Under the pieces are notes generated by a model. It searched no databases, had not been told where the DNA came from, and worked only from the letters and a program-made list of their open reading frames with translations. Source: Escherichia coli (GTDB lineage: Bacteria > Pseudomonadota > Gammaproteobacteria > Enterobacterales > Enterobacteriaceae). From it: a stretch of DNA of 64,000 nucleotides. The DNA is taken from NCBI RefSeq assembly GCF_044647545.1, contig NZ_CP172818.1, one strand, 5' to 3'. The position numbers and the translations under genes are program-made. Below, one piece after another: positions 1,705-50,958 of the stretch. Each line of letters starts with the position of its first letter. The stretch's first letter is position 1.

Positions 1705-3030
1705 TTAAACCCGGCTACCCCACAAATCGTACTCATCGGCGTGCTCGACTTTCACACGCAGGATATCACCCGGCTTAACGTTGGTTTCACCATTGAGATA
1801 AACCGCGCCGTCGATTTCCGGTGCATCTGCCATGCTGCGACCAATCGCACCTTCTTCGTCCACTTCGTCGATAATCACCAGAATTTCACGGCCCACTTTC
1901 TCTTGCAGGCGCTCGGCGGAAATCTGCTGCTGCAACTGCATGAAACGGTTCCAGCGTTCTTCTTTCACTTCTTCCGGAACCTGGTCAGGCAGGGCATTGG
2001 CGTCTGCACCTTCAACCGGGCTGTATTTAAAGCAGCCAACGCGATCCAGACGTGCTTCTTTCAGGAAGTCGAGTAGCATCTGGAAATCTTCTTCCGTCTC
2101 GCCAGGGAAACCGACAATAAAGGTTGAGCGTAGGGTCAGTTCCGGGCAGATTTCGCGCCACTGTTTGATGCGCGCCAGTTGGCGATCTACAGAACCCGGA
2201 CGCTTCATCAGTTTGAGAATGCGCGGGCTGGCGTGCTGCAACGGAATGTCCAGATACGGCAGGATTTTGCCTTCTGCCATCAGTGGGATGACGTCGTCCA
2301 CATGCGGATAAGGGTAAACGTAGTGCAGACGTGTCCAGATCCCCAGTTTCGATAACTGTTCGCACAGGCTGACCATGCTGGTTTTTACCGGCTCGCCGTT
2401 GTGGAAGCCAGTACGATGTTTAACATCAACGCCATAGGCGGAAGTATCCTGCGAGATCACCAGAATCTCTTTAACGCCCGCATCAACCAGACGTTTCGCT
2501 TCACTTAACACTTCGCCAATAGGACGGCTCACCAGGTCGCCGCGCATAGACGGAATAATGCAGAAGGTGCAGCGGTGATTACAGCCTTCAGAAATTTTCA
2601 GATAGGCATAATGACGCGGCGTCAGTTTCACGCCTTGTTCTGGCACCAGGCTCAGGAATGGGTTGTGTTTCGGTTTTGGCACGTAGTGATGAACGTGCTC
2701 CAGAACCTGCTCATAGCTATGAGGCCCGGTGATTTCCAGCACTTTCGGGTGGACTTCGCGGATCTGATCTTCTTTTGCCCCCAGACAACCGGTCACAATT
2801 ACCTTGCCGTTTTCATTCAACGCTTCACCAATGGCTTCCAGTGATTCTTGTACCGCGCTGTCAATAAAGCCGCAGGTGTTGACGATCACCATGTCCGCAT
2901 CGTCATAGCTCGGTACCACGTCATAACCTTCAGTGCGTAGTTCGGTGAGAATACGCTCTGAATCGACAAGGTTTTTCGGACAGCCAAGGGAAACAAAGCC
3001 GATTTTCGGCTGGGGAGTTACTTTGCTCAT
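1705..3030 (-). CDS. rimO: Ribosomal protein S12 methylthiotransferase RimO (radical SAM, MiaB family)
   Basis: 441 aa ORF, CxxxCxxC radical-SAM motif (CNHRCTFC), length and sequence match RimO/YliG. Confidence 0.93.
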
Positions 3031-3242
3031 AGCTTAAAAAATATTCAGTTACAGGAAAGGTCAGGGCAGGGATTCTACAGAGTTCTGGATAAAATTTGTA
3101 TCGCAATCTCATACGCTGGCGGAGGCGAAGGAAATGTAAATTTTGTTAATTCGGCGTGAAGAATTGATCCTGGACAGCATTTTGCTCAAAAAATAGCCAT
3201 ACTATTTAATTGCAACAAGGCTGGAAAGAGGAGGATCGAAGT

Positions 3243-3626
3243 ATGTTCGTTGACAGACAGCGAATCGATCTGCTGAACCGGTTGATCGACGCACGCGTTG
3301 ACCTCGCCGCATACGTGCAACTGAGGAAGGCAAAAGGATACATGTCCGTCAGCGAAAGCAATCATCTACGAGATAACTTTTTTAAACTGAATCGCGAACT
3401 GCACGATAAATCGCTGCGGTTGAATCTTCATCTGGATCAGGAAGAGTGGAGTGCTCTTCATCATGCTGAAGAAGCATTAGCGACAGCCGCAGTATGTTTG
3501 ATGAGTGGGCACCATGATTGCCCGACTGTTATTACCGTCAACGCCGATAAGCTTGAAAATTGTCTGATGAGCTTAACGCTGAGTATCCAGAGCCTGCAGA
3601 AGCACGCCATGCTTGAGAAGGCCTGA
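3243..3626 (+). CDS. bssR: Biofilm regulator BssR
   Basis: 127 aa from ATG 3243 (MFVDRQRIDLL...), RBS gaggag upstream; ORF-track start 3210 is an upstream in-frame extension. Confidence 0.88.
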   Translation: MFVDRQRIDLLNRLIDARVDLAAYVQLRKAKGYMSVSESNHLRDNFFKLNRELHDKSLRLNLHLDQEEWSALHHAEEALATAAVCLMSGHHDCPTVITVNADKLENCLMSLTLSIQSLQKHAMLEKA

Positions 3627-3631
3627 AAACT

Positions 3632-3670
3632 AAGGGGGAGAAAGCGTCTCCCCCTTCATGTTTAAGTTTT
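3632..3670 (+). terminator. Putative rho-independent terminator after bssR
   Basis: Hairpin gggggag-aaagcgt-ctccccc followed by T-rich tract. Confidence 0.55.
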
Positions 3671-3736
3671 TGTAAAAATGAATTTGTTCTCTCCTCCACT
3701 GACTACGCTTTAAGCCAGAGTCAATCCGGAGGCGTT

Positions 3737-4852
3737 ATGCATCGACAATTCTTTTTCCTTGTGCCCCTTATTTGTCTTTCTTCCGCTCTCTGGGCGGCTC
3801 CTGCAACGGTAAATGTCGAAGTACTGCAAGACAAACTCGACCATCCCTGGGCGCTGGCCTTTTTACCCGACAATCACGGTATGTTAATCACTCTGCGCGG
3901 CGGCGAGTTGCGTCACTGGCAAGCAGGAAAAGGATTATCTGCGCCGCTTTCCGGAGTGCCGGACGTTTGGGCGCACGGGCAGGGCGGCCTGCTGGACGTG
4001 GTTTTAGCGCCTGATTTTGCTCAGTCTCGCCGCATCTGGTTAAGTTATTCCGAAGTAGGCGATGATGGCAAAGCCGGAACTGCTGTGGGTTATGGCCGCT
4101 TAAGTGATGATCTCTCAAAAGTGACCGACTTCCGCACCGTCTTTCGTCAGATGCCAAAACTGTCTACCGGCAACCATTTTGGCGGGCGGATGGTATTCGA
4201 CGGTAAAGGTTATCTTTTGATTGCTCTGGGCGAAAACAATCAGCGCCCGACGGCGCAGGATCTGGATAAATTACAGGGCAAACTGGTGCGTCTGACCGAC
4301 CAGGGCGAAATCCCGGATGATAATCCTTTTATAAAGGAATCCGGTGCACGCGCCGAGATCTGGTCTTATGGCATTCGTAATCCACAAGGAATGGCGATGA
4401 ATCCGTGGAGTAAAGCACTATGGCTGAATGAACATGGCCCGCGCGGTGGTGATGAAATTAATATCCCGCAAAAAGGCAAAAACTACGGCTGGCCGCTGGC
4501 AACCTGGGGAATCAACTATTCGGGCTTTAAGATACCGGAAGCGAAAGGGAAGATCGTCGCCGGGACCGAGCAACCTGTTTTTTACTGGAAAGATTCGCCC
4601 GCCGTGAGCGGCATGGCCTTCTATAACAGCGATAAATTCCCCCAGTGGCAGCAAAAATTATTTATTGGCGCGCTGAAAGATAAAGATGTCATTGTGATGA
4701 GCGTCAACGGCGACAAAGTGACAGAAGATGGCCGTATTTTAACGGACAGAGGGCAGCGAATTCGTGATGTTCGCACTGGACCCGACGGTTATTTATACGT
4801 TCTCACCGACGAGTCCAGTGGGGAATTACTTAAAGTTAGCCCACGCAATTAG
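3737..4852 (+). CDS. yliI: Soluble aldose sugar dehydrogenase YliI (PQQ-dependent, signal peptide)
   Basis: 371 aa ORF with N-terminal signal peptide; matches YliI. Confidence 0.9.
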
Positions 4853-5475
4853 CTAACGGGAATCATCACCACTTTGCGCACTGCGGGGCGTTCAGTGAGT
4901 TGCTGATACCAGCGTTGCAGATTTGGACGCGGTGTCCAGGTCAGGCCAACATTAAACAAATTGTAGATGAACGGTGCGATAGCGATATCGCCCACACCAA
5001 ACTCGTCGCCGGAGAACCATTTTACTTTTGCCAGTTCCGCATCGAGCAGGGCAAACAGGGCGTCGCACTCTTTACAACTGGCATCAATGGCGGCCTGATC
5101 GCGCTCTTCCGGTGGTGTTCTGACTAATCCCATCAGGATCCCGCGATGGGCATTACTGAGCGTCTGGTTTGCCCAGTCCATCCATTTTTCTGCTTCCGCA
5201 CGACGTGCCGGTGAGTCGATCCACAGGCGTTTTTGCCCGTACTGTGCCGCCAGATAGCGGACAATGGCGTTTGATTCCCAAAGAATGAGATCACTTTCGT
5301 CGTCACGCAACAATGGCACCAGCCCGTTAGGGTTCATCGCCAGAAAATCAGCATCGTGATTTATCCCAAACTCACGGCCCGCGAGAATTTGCTCATAAGG
5401 TAGTTCCAGTTCTTCGAGCGTCAGCAATACTTTTTTTACGTTGGTTGAATTATTCCGACCCCACAGCGTAATCAT
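4849..5475 (-). CDS. gstB: Glutathione S-transferase GstB (YliJ)
   Basis: 208 aa from ATG ([13 protein letters not shown]...); 4-bp convergent stop overlap with yliI. Confidence 0.9.
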
Positions 5476-21128: not shown

Positions 21129-22082
21129 ATGAGTACACTTGAACCTGCTGCCCAGTCGAAACCGCCGGGCGGATTTAAGCTGTGGTTGTCGCAGCTGCAA
21201 ATGAAGCATGGGCGCAAACTGGTGATTGCGCTGCCGTATATCTGGCTAATCCTGCTGTTTCTGCTGCCATTTCTGATTGTCTTTAAAATAAGCCTGGCGG
21301 AGATGGCGCGCGCTATTCCACCTTATACCGAACTGATGGAGTGGGCTGACGGGCAACTTTCCATCACTCTTAATCTCGGTAATTTTCTGCAACTGACTGA
21401 CGATCCGCTCTATTTCGATGCTTATCTCCAGTCGTTACAGGTGGCGGCGATTTCGACTATTTGCTGTTTACTGATCGGCTATCCGCTGGCGTGGGCGGTG
21501 GCGCACAGTAAGCCTTCGACCCGTAATATCTTATTGCTACTGGTGATCCTGCCGTCGTGGACCTCGTTTCTGATTCGCGTTTATGCCTGGATGGGAATAT
21601 TAAAAAATAACGGCGTACTGAATAATTTTCTGCTGTGGCTGGGGGTTATCGACCAGCCGCTGACCATTCTGCATACCAATCTGGCCGTTTATATCGGCAT
21701 TGTTTATGCCTACGTGCCGTTTATGGTACTGCCGATTTATACCGCGTTGATTCGTATTGATTATTCGCTGGTGGAAGCGGCACTGGATCTCGGTGCACGA
21801 CCGCTGAAAACGTTCTTTACTGTGATCGTGCCGCTGACCAAAGGCGGGATTATTGCCGGATCGATGCTGGTGTTTATCCCGGCTGTGGGCGAGTTTGTGA
21901 TCCCTGAACTGCTCGGTGGCCCGGACAGCATCATGATCGGGCGCGTGCTGTGGCAGGAGTTCTTTAACAACCGCGACTGGCCGGTGGCCTCAGCGGTAGC
22001 GATCATCATGTTGCTGCTGCTAATTGTGCCGATAATGTGGTTCCACAAGCATCAGCAAAAAAGCGTGGGAGAACACGGATGA
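21129..22082 (+). CDS. potH: Putrescine ABC transporter permease PotH
   Basis: 317 aa multi-TM permease. Confidence 0.92.
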   Translation: MSTLEPAAQSKPPGGFKLWLSQLQMKHGRKLVIALPYIWLILLFLLPFLIVFKISLAEMARAIPPYTELMEWADGQLSITLNLGNFLQLTDDPLYFDAYLQSLQVAAISTICCLLIGYPLAWAVAHSKPSTRNILLLLVILPSWTSFLIRVYAWMGILKNNGVLNNFLLWLGVIDQPLTILHTNLAVYIGIVYAYVPFMVLPIYTALIRIDYSLVEAALDLGARPLKTFFTVIVPLTKGGIIAGSMLVFIPAVGEFVIPELLGGPDSIMIGRVLWQEFFNNRDWPVASAVAIIMLLLLIVPIMWFHKHQQKSVGEHG

Positions 22083-29226: not shown

Positions 29227-29305
29227 AATCATTTCCTTATTAGCTTGTTCTGAAAAATGGCGTTATACGATAATAGATGATATCCTTTCAATACCATCTT
29301 AAAAG

Positions 29306-29570
29306 CACAAAACAATACTTTATATTATAATAATAAAAATATATACTAATAATTAAAAAAATTAACATATACAACACATAATAAAAAAAAATAATAATTT
29401 AATATAAAAAAATAATTAAAAATTCTAAAAAACTTTAAATAATTTTAATAACAATCAAAATTATTAAATATTAAATCAAAAAAAAAAATTTTTAAAATAA
29501 AAAAAAAACAAATAAAAAAAATAATAATAAAACTATTAAATTATAAAAAAAAACAAATAATATTAAAAAT
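29306..29570. other. Extreme AT block with zero G over ~265 bp; non-enterobacterial composition
   Basis: Counted directly: no G and about 13 C between 29306 and 29570; A/T homopolymers and (aat)n-like tracts. Confidence 0.6.
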
Positions 29571-29629: not shown

Positions 29630-29953
29630 ATGCAATTTTCTACAACCCCAACTCTGGAAGGCCAGACCATCGTCGAATATTGCGGTGTGGTGACCGGCGA
29701 AGCGATTTTAGGTGCCAATATTTTCCGTGATTTCTTTGCTGGTATCCGCGATATCGTTGGCGGACGCTCCGGGGCTTATGAAAAAGAATTGCGTAAAGCG
29801 CGGGAGATCGCCTTTGAGGAGCTCGGCGATCAGGCCCGGGCGCTGGGGGCCGATGCCGTAGTCGGTATTGATATCGACTATGAAACGGTCGGGCAAAACG
29901 GCAGTATGCTGATGGTTAGCGTCAGCGGTACGGCGGTGAAAACGCGTCGATGA
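29630..29953 (+). CDS. ybjQ: YbjQ (UPF0145 family)
   Basis: 107 aa, RBS aaggag upstream; 4-bp overlap with amiD. Confidence 0.9.
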
Positions 29954-30780
29954 GAAGAGTCTTCTGGCTGGTCGCCGCCGCTCTGTTACTGGCAGGGTGT
30001 GCCGGCGAAAAGGGCATTGTCGAGAAAGAGGGATATCAGCTTGATACCCGACGCCAGGCGCAGGCGGCGTATCCGCGCATTAAAGTGCTGGTGATCCACT
30101 ACACCGCAGATGATTTTGATAGCTCGCTGGCGACACTGACCGATAAGCAGGTCAGCTCGCATTATCTGGTCCCTGCGGTACCACCGCGATACAACGGTAA
30201 ACCGCGCATCTGGCAACTGGTGCCGGAACAGGAACTGGCCTGGCATGCGGGGATTAGCGCCTGGCGCGGGGCAACGCGCCTTAACGACACCTCTATTGGC
30301 ATTGAGCTGGAAAACCGTGGCTGGCAGAAATCAGCCGGAGTGAAATATTTTGCCCCGTTTGAACCGGCACAGATTCAGGCGCTTATTCCACTGGCGAAAG
30401 ATATTATTGCCCGTTATCACATCAAGCCGGAAAACGTAGTGGCACATGCGGATATCGCCCCGCAGCGCAAAGACGATCCGGGGCCATTATTTCCCTGGCA
30501 GCAACTGGCGCAGCAGGGGATTGGTGCCTGGCCGGATGCGCAGCGGGTGAACTTTTACCTTGCCGGGCGCGCGCCGCACACACCGGTAGATACCGCGTCA
30601 TTGCTGGAGCTTTTGGCGCGCTACGGTTATGACGTTAAACCTGATATGACACCGCGCGAGCAGCGGCGCGTGATTATGGCGTTCCAGATGCATTTCCGCC
30701 CGACGTTATACAACGGCGAAGCGGATGCAGAAACTCAGGCGATTGCCGAAGCGTTGCTGGAGAAATACGGGCAGGATTAG
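29950..30780 (+). CDS. amiD: N-acetylmuramoyl-L-alanine amidase AmiD (lipoprotein, amidase_2 family)
   Basis: 276 aa, lipobox LLAGC. Confidence 0.92.
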
Positions 30781-31790
30781 CGCGGCAGTTTTCCGTGGTC
30801 GCGTAGCCAGGCGGCAGTTTTCTCGATACCTTCATCCAGGGTGAGGACTGGTTGATAACCTAACTCTTCCTGCGCACGCGTAATATCTAGCGTAAAGTCA
30901 AAATTCAACTTGGAGACGCCGTAGTGGGTCAGCGGCGGCTCTTTTGCTGACTTGCGGCCTAAACGCTCCATGCTGCGGGCGATCATATCCAGCATCGGGT
31001 AGGGGACGGAACGAATACGACAGTCAATATTCAATTCGTCGATCAGCTTCTGCACGATGCTGCGCAGTGTGCGATGTTCGCCGTTGGTGATGTTGTACAC
31101 ACGCCCGGAAGGTAGCTTATCGCAGGCTTCCTGGCTTGCCAGCCACATGGCGTGCACGGCATTTTCATAGTAGGTCATATCCACCAGCGCACTGCCGCCG
31201 TGCGGTAACAGAATGCTGCCATAGTGGTGCATCATATGCGCCAGACGGGGAATAAAGACTTTATCGTGCGGTCCGAACAGACTTTGTGGGCGCAGAATAG
31301 TAAAGCGCGTTTGTGGATTCGCCTGCGAAAGCATATTGATCACCTCTTCGCTGGCTGCTTTGCTGCGGGCAAACTCGTTGGCGAAGCGGTGAGGGCGAAA
31401 ATCTTCTTTAATATCGCGATGGTGGTGATAATCGAAGTACAGGGAGGGGGAAGAGATATGAATAAAGTTACGCACACCCCAGGCGACAGCCCATTCACCC
31501 AGGCGGCGAGTGGCGCGAACGTTAGCCAGATCGAAAGCCTGTTGTGTCCCCCAGGGCGAGGTAAAGCTGGAGCAGTGCCACAGCGTATCAATGCCCGCGA
31601 GCATCACTTTAGCTTGTGATGAGACCAGCTCGGTCAGATCCGCCGGAACAAACTCTGCGCCCATTTTTTCCAGCAATTTACCCATTGCCTCGTTGCGACC
31701 GGTCGCTCGCACGCTGATGCCTTTCTGGCATAAAAACTCTACCGCGTTTCGACCTAAGCCGCTGGTGGCGCCGGTAACCAGTACCTTCAT
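30777..31790 (-). CDS. ybjS: NAD-dependent epimerase/dehydratase family protein YbjS
   Basis: 337 aa from ATG 31790 ([13 protein letters not shown]...), Rossmann GxxGxxG. Confidence 0.87.
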
Positions 31791-41418: not shown

Positions 41419-43077
41419 ATGATTCTTGAGCGCGTTGAAATTGTGGGTTTTCGCGGTATCAACCGTTTGTCGTTGATGCTGGAACAAAACAACGTCCTGA
41501 TTGGGGAGAACGCGTGGGGTAAATCCAGCTTGCTGGACGCCTTAACCCTGCTGCTATCGCCAGAATCAGATCTCTACCATTTTGAGCGCGACGATTTCTG
41601 GTTCCCGCCGGGAGATATCAACGGGCGAGAACATCATCTGCATATTATTTTGACCTTCCGCGAATCGCTGCCAGGCCGACATCGGGTTCGCCGCTATCGA
41701 CCGCTGGAAGCGTGCTGGACGCCATGCACCGATGGCTATCACCGTATTTTTTATCGTCTGGAAGGGGAGAGTGCGGAAGACGGCAGCGTGATGACACTCC
41801 GCAGTTTTCTCGATAAAGACGGACATCCGATTGATGTCGAGGATATTAACGATCAGGCACGCCATCTGGTGCGTTTAATGCCGGTGCTGCGCTTGCGTGA
41901 TGCCCGTTTTATGCGCCGTATTCGTAACGGCACGGTGCCAAATGTCCCTAATGTGGAAGTCACCGCGCGCCAGCTCGATTTCCTCGCCCGTGAGTTATCC
42001 TCACATCCGCAAAATCTCTCTGATGGGCAGATTCGTCAGGGACTTTCCGCAATGGTACAGCTGCTTGAGCATTATTTCTCTGAGCAGGGGGCCGGACAGG
42101 CGCGATATCGTTTAATGCGGCGGCGAGCCAGCAATGAGCAACGAAGTTGGCGCTATCTGGATATCATCAACCGGATGATTGACCGACCTGGAGGGCGCTC
42201 GTATCGGGTTATTTTGCTCGGCCTGTTTGCTACTTTGTTGCAGGCAAAAGGCACATTGCGACTGGATAAAGACGCCCGTCCATTGTTGCTGATCGAAGAT
42301 CCAGAAACCCGTTTACACCCCATTATGCTTTCAGTTGCCTGGCATCTGTTGAATCTTCTGCCATTGCAGCGCATTGCCACCACCAACTCTGGCGAGCTGC
42401 TTTCGTTAACGCCGGTAGAGCATGTTTGCCGACTGGTACGTGAGTCCTCGCGCGTTGCCGCCTGGCGTCTGGGGCCGAGTGGTTTGAGTACCGAAGATAG
42501 CCGACGCATATCCTTTCACATTCGTTTTAACCGTCCGTCATCGCTGTTTGCACGCTGCTGGCTGCTGGTGGAAGGGGAAACGGAAACCTGGGTTATCAAT
42601 GAACTGGCGCGTCAGTGCGGACATCATTTTGATGCTGAAGGGATCAAGGTCATTGAGTTTGCCCAGTCCGGGCTAAAGCCACTGGTTAAATTTGCCCGGC
42701 GAATGGGGATTGAATGGCATGTACTGGTCGATGGCGATGAAGCAGGGAAGAAATATGCCGCTACGGTACGCAGCCTGTTGAATAACGATCGGGAAGCCGA
42801 ACGAGAACATTTAACGGCGTTACCGGCGCTGGATATGGAACATTTTATGTATCGCCAGGGATTTTCCGATGTGTTCCACCGCGTGGCGCAAATCCCGGAA
42901 AATGTACCGATGAATCTGCGCAAAATTATCTCGAAAGCGATCCATCGCTCTTCCAAACCCGATCTTGCCATTGAAGTGGCAATGGAGGCCGGACGTCGTG
43001 GTGTGGACTCCGTACCGACGCTGCTGAAAAAAATGTTCTCACGCGTGCTGTGGCTGGCGCGCGGTCGCGCGGATTAA
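41419..43077 (+). CDS. ybjD: OLD-family ATPase/TOPRIM nuclease homologue YbjD
   Basis: 552 aa; N-terminal Walker A (GENAWGKSS), C-terminal TOPRIM-like acidic motifs (LLVEGETE, LVDGDEAG). Confidence 0.88.
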   Translation: MILERVEIVGFRGINRLSLMLEQNNVLIGENAWGKSSLLDALTLLLSPESDLYHFERDDFWFPPGDINGREHHLHIILTFRESLPGRHRVRRYRPLEACWTPCTDGYHRIFYRLEGESAEDGSVMTLRSFLDKDGHPIDVEDINDQARHLVRLMPVLRLRDARFMRRIRNGTVPNVPNVEVTARQLDFLARELSSHPQNLSDGQIRQGLSAMVQLLEHYFSEQGAGQARYRLMRRRASNEQRSWRYLDIINRMIDRPGGRSYRVILLGLFATLLQAKGTLRLDKDARPLLLIEDPETRLHPIMLSVAWHLLNLLPLQRIATTNSGELLSLTPVEHVCRLVRESSRVAAWRLGPSGLSTEDSRRISFHIRFNRPSSLFARCWLLVEGETETWVINELARQCGHHFDAEGIKVIEFAQSGLKPLVKFARRMGIEWHVLVDGDEAGKKYAATVRSLLNNDREAEREHLTALPALDMEHFMYRQGFSDVFHRVAQIPENVPMNLRKIISKAIHRSSKPDLAIEVAMEAGRRGVDSVPTLLKKMFSRVLWLARGRAD

Positions 43078-44066
43078 CCGCGAAACATCGTGGCCATTTG
43101 TGGCTGAATAGCGTCGAGCATCTCATAGCGCCGACGGTATTCAGCCCGTTTTTTACTGGCGATTTCGGCAATCTCTTTTCGTGCTATCTGTGCTGGAAGG
43201 CGGTAATGGCGTTCAGCATCACATACGCCGCCAACCGACTCCCAGAACGCGTTGTAATCGGCATGGATCTTGCCTTCTTTATCACGATAACGCAGGCTGC
43301 GGTAAATATGCGTTTCATTGCTGACGGCAATAATCTGCTCTACCTGCAAACGTTGGGCAAACAGACAGGCCGCTTCCATCACGAGGCGTTTGGGAAATAG
43401 CCCGTGGCAGGCTTTCGTCGCATTCTGGATTTCCTGGTGTGGAATTTCCCATTTTGCGCCTTGCAGTCCGCCAATAAACATCGTCCTTTTCCCCTGATAT
43501 TCACACAGGGTAAACGTGAGCTCTGCCAGAGGAATACCTTCGCTGTTGCGGAACAGGATGGTGCTGTCACCTTCTTTATCCATTGAGATCATCATGGTCA
43601 GCTCAAGCGTGAACTGCTCGCCGTTTTTGCCTTCCAGCTTCGCCAGTTGCAGCCCGGGGGTATTCAAATATAAGCTGAATTCTTCCGCCGACATACACCC
43701 GCGGAGTAACGCATAATGGTAACGTAACGCCTCCAGCAATTGCTTACGGCTAAGATTCGCCGCAAGGTAAGGGCGATGTAGACGTACAGGCAGTCGCGGC
43801 TGGCGCGTTAACAACACATTGAGATTAGGCCAGTGGGAAAGTTCGTTCATCCACTCAACGCTTAAACGCGGCATAATCAACGAGCGCAGCAAAAATTTCT
43901 GGCGAAAACTACGGCGATGCCAGAATTTACCCGGCCGACACTGTCCACGTGCCAGACTAAGAAAAAGTGACAGGCTGCTGAGAGATTCAGATGGCGTAAA
44001 GGTCCGTTCAGTTAGCTGCGACATATTCATGAAATCAATGATTATACATGACGTCGATTTCACCAT
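43074..44066 (-). CDS. ybjX: VirK/DUF535-family protein YbjX
   Basis: 330 aa; convergent 4-bp overlap with ybjD. Confidence 0.85.
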   Translation of the reverse strand: MVKSTSCIIIDFMNMSQLTERTFTPSESLSSLSLFLSLARGQCRPGKFWHRRSFRQKFLLRSLIMPRLSVEWMNELSHWPNLNVLLTRQPRLPVRLHRPYLAANLSRKQLLEALRYHYALLRGCMSAEEFSLYLNTPGLQLAKLEGKNGEQFTLELTMMISMDKEGDSTILFRNSEGIPLAELTFTLCEYQGKRTMFIGGLQGAKWEIPHQEIQNATKACHGLFPKRLVMEAACLFAQRLQVEQIIAVSNETHIYRSLRYRDKEGKIHADYNAFWESVGGVCDAERHYRLPAQIARKEIAEIASKKRAEYRRRYEMLDAIQPQMATMFRG

Positions 44067-44180: not shown

Positions 44181-45296
44181 ATGAAAAAGCGGAAAACCGT
44201 GAAGAAGCGTTACGTTATTGCGCTGGTGATAGTCATCGCCGGACTGATTACGTTATGGAGAATTCTTAACGCACCCGTTCCGACTTATCAGACGCTGATT
44301 GTGCGCCCCGGTGATTTACAGCAAAGCGTGCTGGCGACCGGAAAGCTGGACGCGCTGCGTAAGGTTGACGTGGGCGCGCAGGTCAGCGGTCAGTTGAAAA
44401 CGCTGTCGGTGGCGATTGGCGATAAAGTAAAAAAAGACCAGCTTTTAGGGGTTATTGATCCTGAACAGGCTGAAAACCAGATCAAGGAGGTGGAAGCAAC
44501 GCTGATGGAGCTACGCGCGCAGCGGCAGCAGGCGGAAGCGGAGCTGAAACTGGCGCGGGTGACGTATTCCCGTCAGCAACGTCTTGCACAAACGCAAGCG
44601 GTTTCACAGCAGGATCTCGATACCGCCGCGACGGAGATGGCTGTGAAACAGGCGCAAATTGGCACCATTGACGCGCAAATCAAGCGCAATCAGGCCTCAC
44701 TCGATACGGCTAAAACCAATCTCGATTACACCCGCATCGTTGCCCCGATGGCCGGGGAAGTCACGCAAATCACCACTCTGCAAGGCCAGACGGTGATTGC
44801 CGCACAACAAGCACCGAACATTCTGACGCTGGCAGATATGAGCACCATGCTGGTAAAAGCGCAGGTTTCTGAAGCGGATGTAATCCACCTGAAGCCGGGG
44901 CAAAAAGCCTGGTTTACGGTGCTTGGCGATCCGCTGACGCGCTATGAGGGGCAAATCAAGGATGTGCTACCGACGCCGGAAAAGGTTAACGACGCTATTT
45001 TCTATTACGCCCGTTTTGAAGTCCCCAACCCCAATGGTTTGCTGCGGCTGGATATGACCGCGCAAGTGCATATTCAGCTCACCGATGTGAAAAATGTGCT
45101 GACGATCCCTCTGTCGGCGTTAGGCGATCCGGTTGGCGATAATCGTTATAAAGTCAAATTGTTGCGTAATGGTGAAACACGCGAGCGTGAAGTGACGATT
45201 GGCGCACGTAACGATACCGATGTTGAGATTGTCAAAGGGCTGGAAGCTGGCGATGAAGTGGTGATTGGTGAGGCCAAACCAGGAGCTGCGCAATGA
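44181..45296 (+). CDS. macA: Macrolide efflux membrane fusion protein MacA
   Basis: 371 aa from ATG 44181 ([16 protein letters not shown]...), coiled-coil periplasmic adaptor. Confidence 0.92.
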
Positions 45297-50738: not shown

Positions 50739-50826
50739 GTTCACTGCCGTACAGGCAGCTTAGAAATTCACTGGTAACATACTCCACCCGCCCACCATGT
50801 TCACTGCCGTACAGGCAGATAAAATG
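50739..50826 (+). CRISPR. Vestigial type I-F CRISPR array: 2 repeats (second degenerate at 3' end), 1 spacer of 32 bp; no cas genes nearby
   Basis: Repeat 1 at 50739-50766 GTTCACTGCCGTACAGGCAGCTTAGAAA (the I-F / Ypest-type repeat); spacer 50767-50798; repeat 2 at 50799-50826 GTTCACTGCCGTACAGGCAGataaaatg; AT-rich leader upstream; clpA-infA location is the known I-F CRISPR site in E. coli. Confidence 0.85.
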
Positions 50827-50870: not shown

Positions 50871-50958
50871 TGGCGGTGAGGGGGGGATTCGAACCCCCGA
50901 TACGTTGCCGTATACACACTTTCCAGGCGTGCTCCTTCAGCCACTCGGACACCTCACC
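50871..50958 (-). tRNA. serW: tRNA-Ser (anticodon GGA)
   Basis: Minus-strand 88-nt sequence GGTGAGGTGTCCGAGTGGCTGAAGGAGCACGCCTGGAAAGTG...GGGGTTCGAATCCCCCCCTCACCGCCA with cloverleaf features, long variable arm, 3' CCA. Confidence 0.93.

Follow-up and report, generated by a model that had tools for sequence, protein, structure and literature searches.

Four-nucleotide stop codon overlaps at three tail-to-tail gene pairs of Escherichia coli and candidate 3′-end hairpins in the partner coding sequences

When two converging genes interlock their stop codons, does the overlap itself serve a function, and where do the two transcripts end? We addressed this question in a 64,000 nt stretch of DNA (the window), which is part of the E. 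coli chromosome and collinear with K-12 MG1655 from ~875 to 939 kb. Pieces of the window of kb size match strains such as FDAARGOS_497 at 100% identity. An earlier note on this DNA had named yliI/gstB and ybjD/ybjX as convergent pairs overlapping by 4 bp at their 3′ ends. Both pairs were named correctly, but a third with the same geometry, amiD/ybjS, had been overlooked.

Three convergent pairs with interlocked stop codons

The coding sequences and their common tetramers are located in the window as follows.

3737–4852, plus strand: yliI CDS, PQQ-dependent aldose sugar dehydrogenase; stop TAG at 4850–4852 (ORF list and annotation)
4849–5475, minus strand: gstB CDS, glutathione S-transferase; stop TAA, the reverse complement of 4849–4851 (ORF list and annotation)
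4849–4852, both strands: TTAG tetramer common to yliI and gstB, in which the stop codons interlock (direct reading)
29950–30780, plus strand: amiD CDS; stop TAG at 30778–30780 (ORF and annotation)
30777–31790, minus strand: ybjS CDS; stop TAA, the reverse complement of 30777–30779
30777–30780, both strands: TTAG tetramer common to amiD and ybjS (direct reading)
41419–43077, plus strand: ybjD CDS, class 1 OLD-family ATPase/Toprim protein (PMC13261556); stop TAA at 43075–43077
43074–44030, minus strand: ybjX CDS, VirK/YbjX, DUF535; stop TAA, the reverse complement of 43074–43076
43074–43077, both strands: TTAA tetramer common to ybjD and ybjX (direct reading)

Stop positions were checked by direct reading, mechanical ORF lists, and two independent annotations, i.e. 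PGAP of strain FDAARGOS_497 and RefSeq of K-12 MG1655; the latter starts ybjX at 44066 instead of 44030. The ORF lists, PGAP, and RefSeq all agree on the 4-bp overlaps of yliI/gstB and ybjD/ybjX. Reannotated stops that separate the genes would have removed the overlaps, and both annotations retain them. All three pairs face each other with their 3′ ends and overlap by exactly 4 nt, the tetramers being TTAG, TTAG, and TTAA, with CTAA in the B2 allele of ybjD/ybjX. [quoted passage not shown] The geometry is identical, and the three window pairs are individual members of this class without substantive difference. The overlaps are already known from public annotation, their class from 2007, and the pairs from a catalogue of 2025.

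Such an overlap would be false if one ORF of each pair were unreal or wrongly ended. However, the YliI, GstB, YbjD, and YbjX proteins are conserved in full length with the same ends across the Enterobacteriaceae, and Pfam domains are on record for YbjX, YbjD, AmiD, and YbjS; the conservation of AmiD and YbjS was checked within Escherichia and one Citrobacter group. The two independent annotations concur on the ends of the pairs, and the stops are fixed by the sequence. Both ORFs of each pair are real conserved genes, whose orthologues in other genera end alike. The chance of an annotation artefact is negligible, and this reading is refuted for practical purposes.

The three junctions very probably belong to the ordinary YTAR class of tail-to-tail overlaps of 4 nt, with transcripts that end within the partner gene. 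Where a pyrimidine at the end of the final sense codon is followed by the stop TAA or TAG, the opposite strand reads TAA or TAG at the same place. The overlap itself would then be without function, as the closest approach that converging frames get for free, and it would arise and drift by stop-codon mutation during genome compaction.

Conservation and frequency of the overlaps

The junctions had been thought native and unperturbed, which agrees with their near-universal presence in E. coli genomes and with the occurrence of both arrangements in other genera. They are found in ~5,400 of the 5,426 complete genomes, and a 50-mer spanning the yliI/gstB junction is 100% identical in 5,233 of them. 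The ybjD/ybjX region, found in 5,424 E. coli genomes, exists as two alleles, each of which retains the overlap of 4 nt: TTAA, as in the window (4,297 genomes), and CTAA (1,062 B2-type genomes including UTI89). CTAA lies in a cluster of six substitutions, all synonymous in ybjD, by which the two C-terminal residues of YbjX become CS instead of RG. At amiD/ybjS, a single substitution in one E. coli assembly (L092) turns TTAG into TTTG and abolishes both stops, so that AmiD is longer (301 instead of 276 residues), YbjS likewise (351 instead of 337 residues), and the CDS overlap grows from 4 to 121 nt.

We compared the gstB/yliI junction in one scan of species-representative genomes, in which 57 of the 80 loci had the convergent neighbor. 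Among these 57 Enterobacteriaceae sequences, the stop-to-stop gap is −4 in 6, 0 in 21, 1–5 in 21, 8–20 in 6, and 65–68 in 3. The gap of −4 occurs in Escherichia species, Salmonella enterica arizonae, Citrobacter koseri, and one uncultured lineage, and that of 0 in Enterobacter, Lelliottia, and Trabulsiella, among others. Tight packing is thus ancestral for this pair, with −4 as one state of a drifting junction.

At ybjD/ybjX, by contrast with gstB/yliI, the −4 state persists in S. enterica, Citrobacter freundii, an Enterobacter, Kluyvera, and another Escherichia, with TTAG or TTAA as the tetramer in the other genera. In Kluyvera, it is found at the second of two tandem ybjX copies. YbjX identity in the genera keeping the overlap is 54–68%, and the C-terminus of YbjD, V[LV]WLARG[RK]AD, is nearly invariant. 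The simplest reason for the conservation of −4 is thus that the codon GAY of the C-terminal Asp, together with TAA or TAG, forces the ybjX stop. The strict −4 despite 54–58% identity of YbjX could also reflect selection on the arrangement, and not the YbjD C-terminus alone. The amiD/ybjS overlap of −4 is also kept in the Citrobacter amalonaticus group, in a cross-genus comparison that reached as far as Citrobacter, its list of homologues being saturated by E. coli sequences.

As a control for frequency, we used the annotation of four arbitrary 50-kb K-12 stretches at 1.50, 2.50, 3.50, and 4.20 Mb. An overlap of exactly 4 nt is present at 3 of their 32 CDS-CDS convergent junctions (~9%; pptA/yddH, yfeH/ypeB, and zraR/purD), a larger overlap at 2, and a gap of 0–2 nt at 3. 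Compared with this rate, the three overlaps among 9 junctions (K-12 stretch) or 11 junctions (window) give P = 0.045–0.077 in a post hoc test, and their clustering is not significant. Of the 47 other gene ends of the window, 17 (36%) already read YTAR, and a gene end of this kind supplies the antisense stop for free. The overlaps are no more than chance would give and represent an ordinary arrangement.

These data also bear on whether the 4-nt overlap itself is selected, either for compaction or by locking the genes together so that no indels between them are possible. Three −4 junctions lie within 38 kb, as compared with about one per 67 kb in the control stretches, and the ybjD/ybjX and amiD/ybjS overlaps are retained in other genera. 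However, the local excess is marginal and post hoc (the P range given above), the gstB/yliI gap ranges from −4 to +20 in related genera with neither gene lost, and the members of the pairs are functionally unrelated. Common stops are moreover costly, as one substitution ruins both, which is what happened in L092. We regard selection on the overlap as very improbable.

Transcript ends within the partner genes

Since no intergenic DNA is left at these junctions, each mRNA must end in the coding region of its partner; terminators of convergently overlapping genes in general must sit within the partner coding sequence (PMC2174442). The earlier note had stated that no terminator lies between the genes. 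This is right in that there is no intergenic DNA to hold one, but Rho regions and hairpins sit inside the partner CDS. Regions of Rho termination sensitive to bicyclomycin were mapped by Adams et al., 2021 (PMC7815308 supplementary file 2), and the following fall into the three pairs.

Window 4401 (K-12 879406), minus strand: Rho region antisense to yliI, score 3.76, P = 1.4e-6, 448 nt past the gstB stop (PMC7815308)
Window ~30126 (K-12 905089), minus strand: Rho region antisense to amiD, score 3.9, 651 nt past the ybjS stop (PMC7815308)
Window ~31155 (K-12 906118), plus strand: Rho region antisense to ybjS, score 4.3, 375 nt past the amiD stop (PMC7815308)
Window 42192 (K-12 917246), minus strand: Rho region antisense to ybjD, score 15.9, 882 nt past the ybjX stop (PMC7815308)

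For four of the six transcript directions, a published Rho region thus lies 375–880 nt inside the partner, at a position resolved by the method to hundreds of nt. In untreated cells, 299 reads upstream of the region antisense to ybjD compare with 18 downstream (PMC7815308). The three minus-strand 3′UTRs are C-rich, with C/G of 1.18–1.23. In the Term-seq tables examined, none of the six genes has a mapped steady-state 3′ end, and neither ybjX nor ybjD has an entry in the Term-seq or SMRT-Cappable tables examined; ybjD is apparently weakly expressed, judging only from its low read counts in the Rho table. In the whole window, Rfam at gathering thresholds matched only RybB, one tRNA, and one CRISPR repeat, none at a junction. 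A promoter/terminator pattern scan found terminator-like sites without excess, and near the junctions only the inner ybjD stem.

Folding of the first 120 nt past each stop placed a strong hairpin in the coding end of the partner gene at each of the two junctions named earlier.

4774–4820, minus strand: hairpin of 15 bp, −25.5 kcal/mol, without U tract, 29–75 nt past the gstB stop and within 16 yliI codons
43100–43154, plus strand: hairpin of 15 bp at 43100–43147, −26.5 kcal/mol, then G-UUUUUU, 23–77 nt past the ybjD stop and inside ybjX codons

Downstream of the gstB-side hairpin follows CGAACAUCAC, again with no U tract. C/G on this side is 1.62 at 100–200 nt past the stop and 1.23 on average over 1 kb, which is a weak signal given that the antisense of most genes is C-rich. 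The ungapped alignment of 57 sequences revealed two alternative hairpins past gstB, H2 (4774–4820) and H1, which is nearer the stop. One of the two is present in Escherichia, Citrobacter, Salmonella, and Klebsiella and the other in the Enterobacter clade; each is paired in ~75% of the alignment cells, and compensatory changes are modest. The 3′ ends of Rho-dependent mRNAs lie at stable stem-loops that lack a U tract and are directly followed by the rut site (Dar & Sorek, 2018; PMC6061677). Like those ends, gstB has a stable U-less hairpin, a C-rich 100 nt after it, and a bicyclomycin-sensitive region beyond. Unlike them, the gstB candidate lies wholly within the CDS of another gene, and the tables examined list no steady-state 3′ end at its base. 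The hairpin at 4774–4820 is a candidate 3′-end-protecting stem-loop of a Rho-terminated gstB mRNA.

The ybjD-side element has the structure of an intrinsic terminator, a G+C-containing stem-loop directly before a U tract. Among orthologous loci, the hairpin is found in Escherichia only. The U run, in contrast, is conserved simply as the antisense strand of two conserved Lys codons of YbjX (Lys-Lys), and other genera still have excess structure within the 120 nt that follow the ybjD stop. This element probably acts as an intrinsic-terminator-like 3′ end for ybjD, as judged from its predicted fold. Ju et al. reportedly found by SEnd-seq in 2019 that overlapping bidirectional intrinsic terminators lie between convergent genes. 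The window pairs are similar to these in that transcripts of convergent genes end in common sequence. However, each terminator of that study is one intergenic hairpin acting on both strands, with an A tract on one side and a U tract on the other. We rejected a bidirectional intrinsic terminator for the window pairs: intergenic DNA is absent, each direction has a hairpin of its own, the U tract occurs only at ybjD, and no A tract is located upstream of the ybjD hairpin.

To evaluate structure in protein-coding segments, we adopted a null of synonymous-codon permutation within each 40-codon segment, calibrated on 47 other gene ends of the window (mean z = −0.14, sd 0.98). The ends of ybjX (z = −3.44), yliI (−3.13, to −3.3), and gstB (−2.21) rank 1, 2, and 3 of 53 window gene ends, and that of ybjD (−1.61) ranks 9; the four together differ from the background gene ends with Mann-Whitney P = 7e-5. 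At amiD/ybjS, there is no excess of structure (z = −0.24 and +0.12 by codon permutation). Across species, which are related in all of these family-wide tests, the antisense of the last 40 codons of yliI has a mean z of −1.96 and is negative in 25 of 28 species, as compared with −0.36 and −0.09 for two upstream controls. The last 40 codons of gstB give a mean z of −0.75 (controls, −0.15 and −0.19), and the ends of ybjD and ybjX −1.56 and −1.73 (7 sequences each; internal controls, −0.02 to −0.38). In the control stretches of K-12, all six genes of the three other −4 junctions have negative z (mean −1.2). The signature of coding-end hairpins is thus observed at the two junctions named earlier, across the Enterobacteriaceae, and more weakly at three other K-12 junctions.

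Two other nulls were set aside. Dinucleotide shuffling gave z = −3.4 and −2.4 for the two hairpins, but this significance is inflated, as the encoded protein sequence itself favors pairing. Under a window-wide null that draws codons by usage, the E. coli hairpins were not significant (P = 0.15 and 0.07). This null was replaced because its shuffles are more G+C-rich than the real segments; across species, the family-wide pattern is the same as with the permutation null.

Strong hairpins in synonymous sites of the last ~40 codons of the partner appear at both junctions, and they probably act as 3′-end elements. The one past gstB would protect the 3′ end as a stem-loop without U tract, with a Rho site downstream, and the one past ybjD would work as an intrinsic terminator made of hairpin and U6.

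Antisense transcription and consequences at the paired gene ends

The overlap of antisense 3′UTRs, as proposed in the earlier note, is unavoidable when both genes of a pair are transcribed, and the strand-specific RNA-seq analysis suggested there has in effect already been published. ExcludonFinder in 2025 listed yliI-gstB, amiD-ybjS, and ybjD-ybjX among 165 convergent excludons of MG1655 (PMC12288877 Table 1), based on transcripts that overlap in 50% or more of the 58 RNA-seq samples from this strain. The call is nearly automatic for pairs with overlapping CDS and shows co-transcription, not antagonism. The transcriptional interference that the earlier note had also deduced does not follow from the geometry alone.

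It is nevertheless conceivable that these pairs are selected excludons, in which transcription of one gene represses the other via collision of RNA polymerases or cleavage of sense-antisense RNA by RNase III. All three pairs belong to the convergent excludome of MG1655 (PMC12288877), but there they are named by transcript coverage, a rule met almost by construction, while the defining property of an excludon is mutually exclusive expression via interference or RNase III. The gstB/yliI gap is not conserved. In addition, yliI, gstB, ybjD, and ybjX are apparently weak in LB (tens to a few hundred reads per 800 nt, judged from the Rho table only), so that collisions would be rare. We consider this explanation unlikely.

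The best candidate for such a relation is PhoP-induced ybjX, with a transcript reaching ~880 nt antisense into ybjD. In support, the Rho-dependent antisense signal over the ybjD 3′ end is very strong, with a score of 15.9 (PMC7815308), the OLD-family product YbjD is cytotoxic when over-expressed (PMC13261556), and ybjX is under PhoP control in Salmonella and Shigella (PMC3335776, PMC12562796). The −4 overlap is also retained in Salmonella, C. freundii, Enterobacter, Kluyvera, and both E. coli alleles though YbjX is 54–58% identical, but the invariant C-terminus of YbjD accounts for this conservation. Even this best case is a long shot. If it were true, ybjX induced by PhoP and stopped by Rho ~880 nt into ybjD might silence a toxic OLD-family defense protein, an outcome to which we give a low probability. 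It is similarly doubtful that coding-end hairpins may have replaced lost intergenic terminators and that ybjX antisense RNA might also hold down toxic YbjD.

Read as ordinary YTAR overlaps with transcripts ending within the partner, the junctions are of small overall importance, and they have several practical consequences. Junctions with common stops serve well to mark DNA as native and unrearranged. One substitution within the common TA is enough to destroy both stops, and deleting or tagging the 3′ end of one gene alters the stop codon and the 3′-end hairpin of its neighbor; Keio deletions of ybjD or yliI may thus affect ybjX or gstB. Synonymous sites at these gene ends seem to be constrained by the RNA of the neighboring gene, which is relevant to recoding projects.

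A third convergent overlap and its variation

The earlier note had listed two tail-to-tail CDS overlaps of 4 nt, yliI/gstB (4849-4852) and ybjD/ybjX (43074-43077). Both were recovered, but the list was incomplete, as amiD/ybjS forms an overlap of the same kind and was absent from it.

29950-30780, + strand, amiD CDS
30777-31790, - strand, ybjS CDS
30777-30780, convergent 4-nt amiD/ybjS overlap, TTAG

This 4-nt overlap is also found in Citrobacter, and the amiD-ybjS pair appears among catalogued excludons, in which neighboring genes on opposite strands have overlapping transcripts. An E. coli assembly (GCA_902843985.1; L092, 3286-3406) carries TTTG in place of TTAG, a single substitution that abolishes the stops of both genes, extending amiD by 25 codons and ybjS by 14 codons and resulting in an overlap of 121 nt. 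TTTG is probably a natural variant of the junction, though a sequencing error in this assembly may account for it.

Three co-directional gene pairs in the window share 4-nt ATGA overlaps.

~22079-22082, potH/potI
29950-29953, ybjQ/amiD
45293-45296, macA/macB

YbjQ-AmiD fusion proteins of 378-383 aa are present in some assemblies (P0122 and P0135).

Atypical spacers, a CRISPR repeat and a prophage

775-1704, dgcI-rimO spacer, 930 bp, homopolymer-rich, without ORFs
~29290-29570, near-pure A/T block of ~275 bp between ybjP and ybjQ
50739-50766, + strand, single CRISPR-DR4 (type I-F) repeat in the clpA-infA interval, above the Rfam gathering threshold
50874-50958, - strand, tRNA adjoining the repeat

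An intact HTH/RelE toxin-antitoxin pair is carried by 1,138 E. coli genomes, and the dgcI-rimO spacer resembles it (at best 82% identity over 77%), with close similarity confined to ~1170-1300 of the window. By appearance it would be a degraded copy of this pair. The version in the window was found in no complete E. coli genome, and its appearance suggests an artefact or sequence corruption. The ybjP-ybjQ block had no match among 5,426 E. coli genomes; the K-12 spacer lacks it and spans 126 bp, and strain FDAARGOS_497 harbors 2.6 kb at this site, including a truncated pentapeptide-repeat gene. A P2-like prophage of ~34 kb adjoins ybjL in strains that elsewhere match parts of the window with 100% identity (FDAARGOS_497; L097, 1-20200); both the window and K-12 are devoid of it. 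In some E. coli, the clpA-infA interval houses the type I-F CRISPR arrays, and the lone CRISPR-DR4 repeat is therefore probably a remnant.

The gstB-yliI and ybjD/ybjX junctions in relatives

The gstB and yliI stops are separated by 65-68 nt in three Citrobacter species (L014, L016 and L023; ~3628-3695), where the spacer contains the perfect G+C-rich palindrome GGGTTAGTCTGTGAGCCACAGGCTAACCC, apparently an intergenic hairpin re-created by an inserted element. GstB is ~70% identical in Halomonas and Vreelandella, and none of these loci (L062, L066, L070, L074-L076, L078 and L081) has yliI beside gstB. The Enterobacteriaceae-type gstB-yliI pair in a record labelled Chryseobacterium sp. 18061 (L072) suggests contamination or mislabelling.

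At ybjD/ybjX, six substitutions within ~14 bp distinguish window positions 43062-43084 from UTI89 (L084), and this cluster is carried by 1,062 B2-type genomes. All six are synonymous in ybjD. In the B2-type allele, YbjX ends in CS instead of RG, and the tetramer reads CTAA rather than TTAA. In a Kluyvera locus (L086), ybjX is tandemly duplicated (3001-3954 and 4129-5085), and the 4-nt overlap is retained solely by the copy adjoining ybjD.
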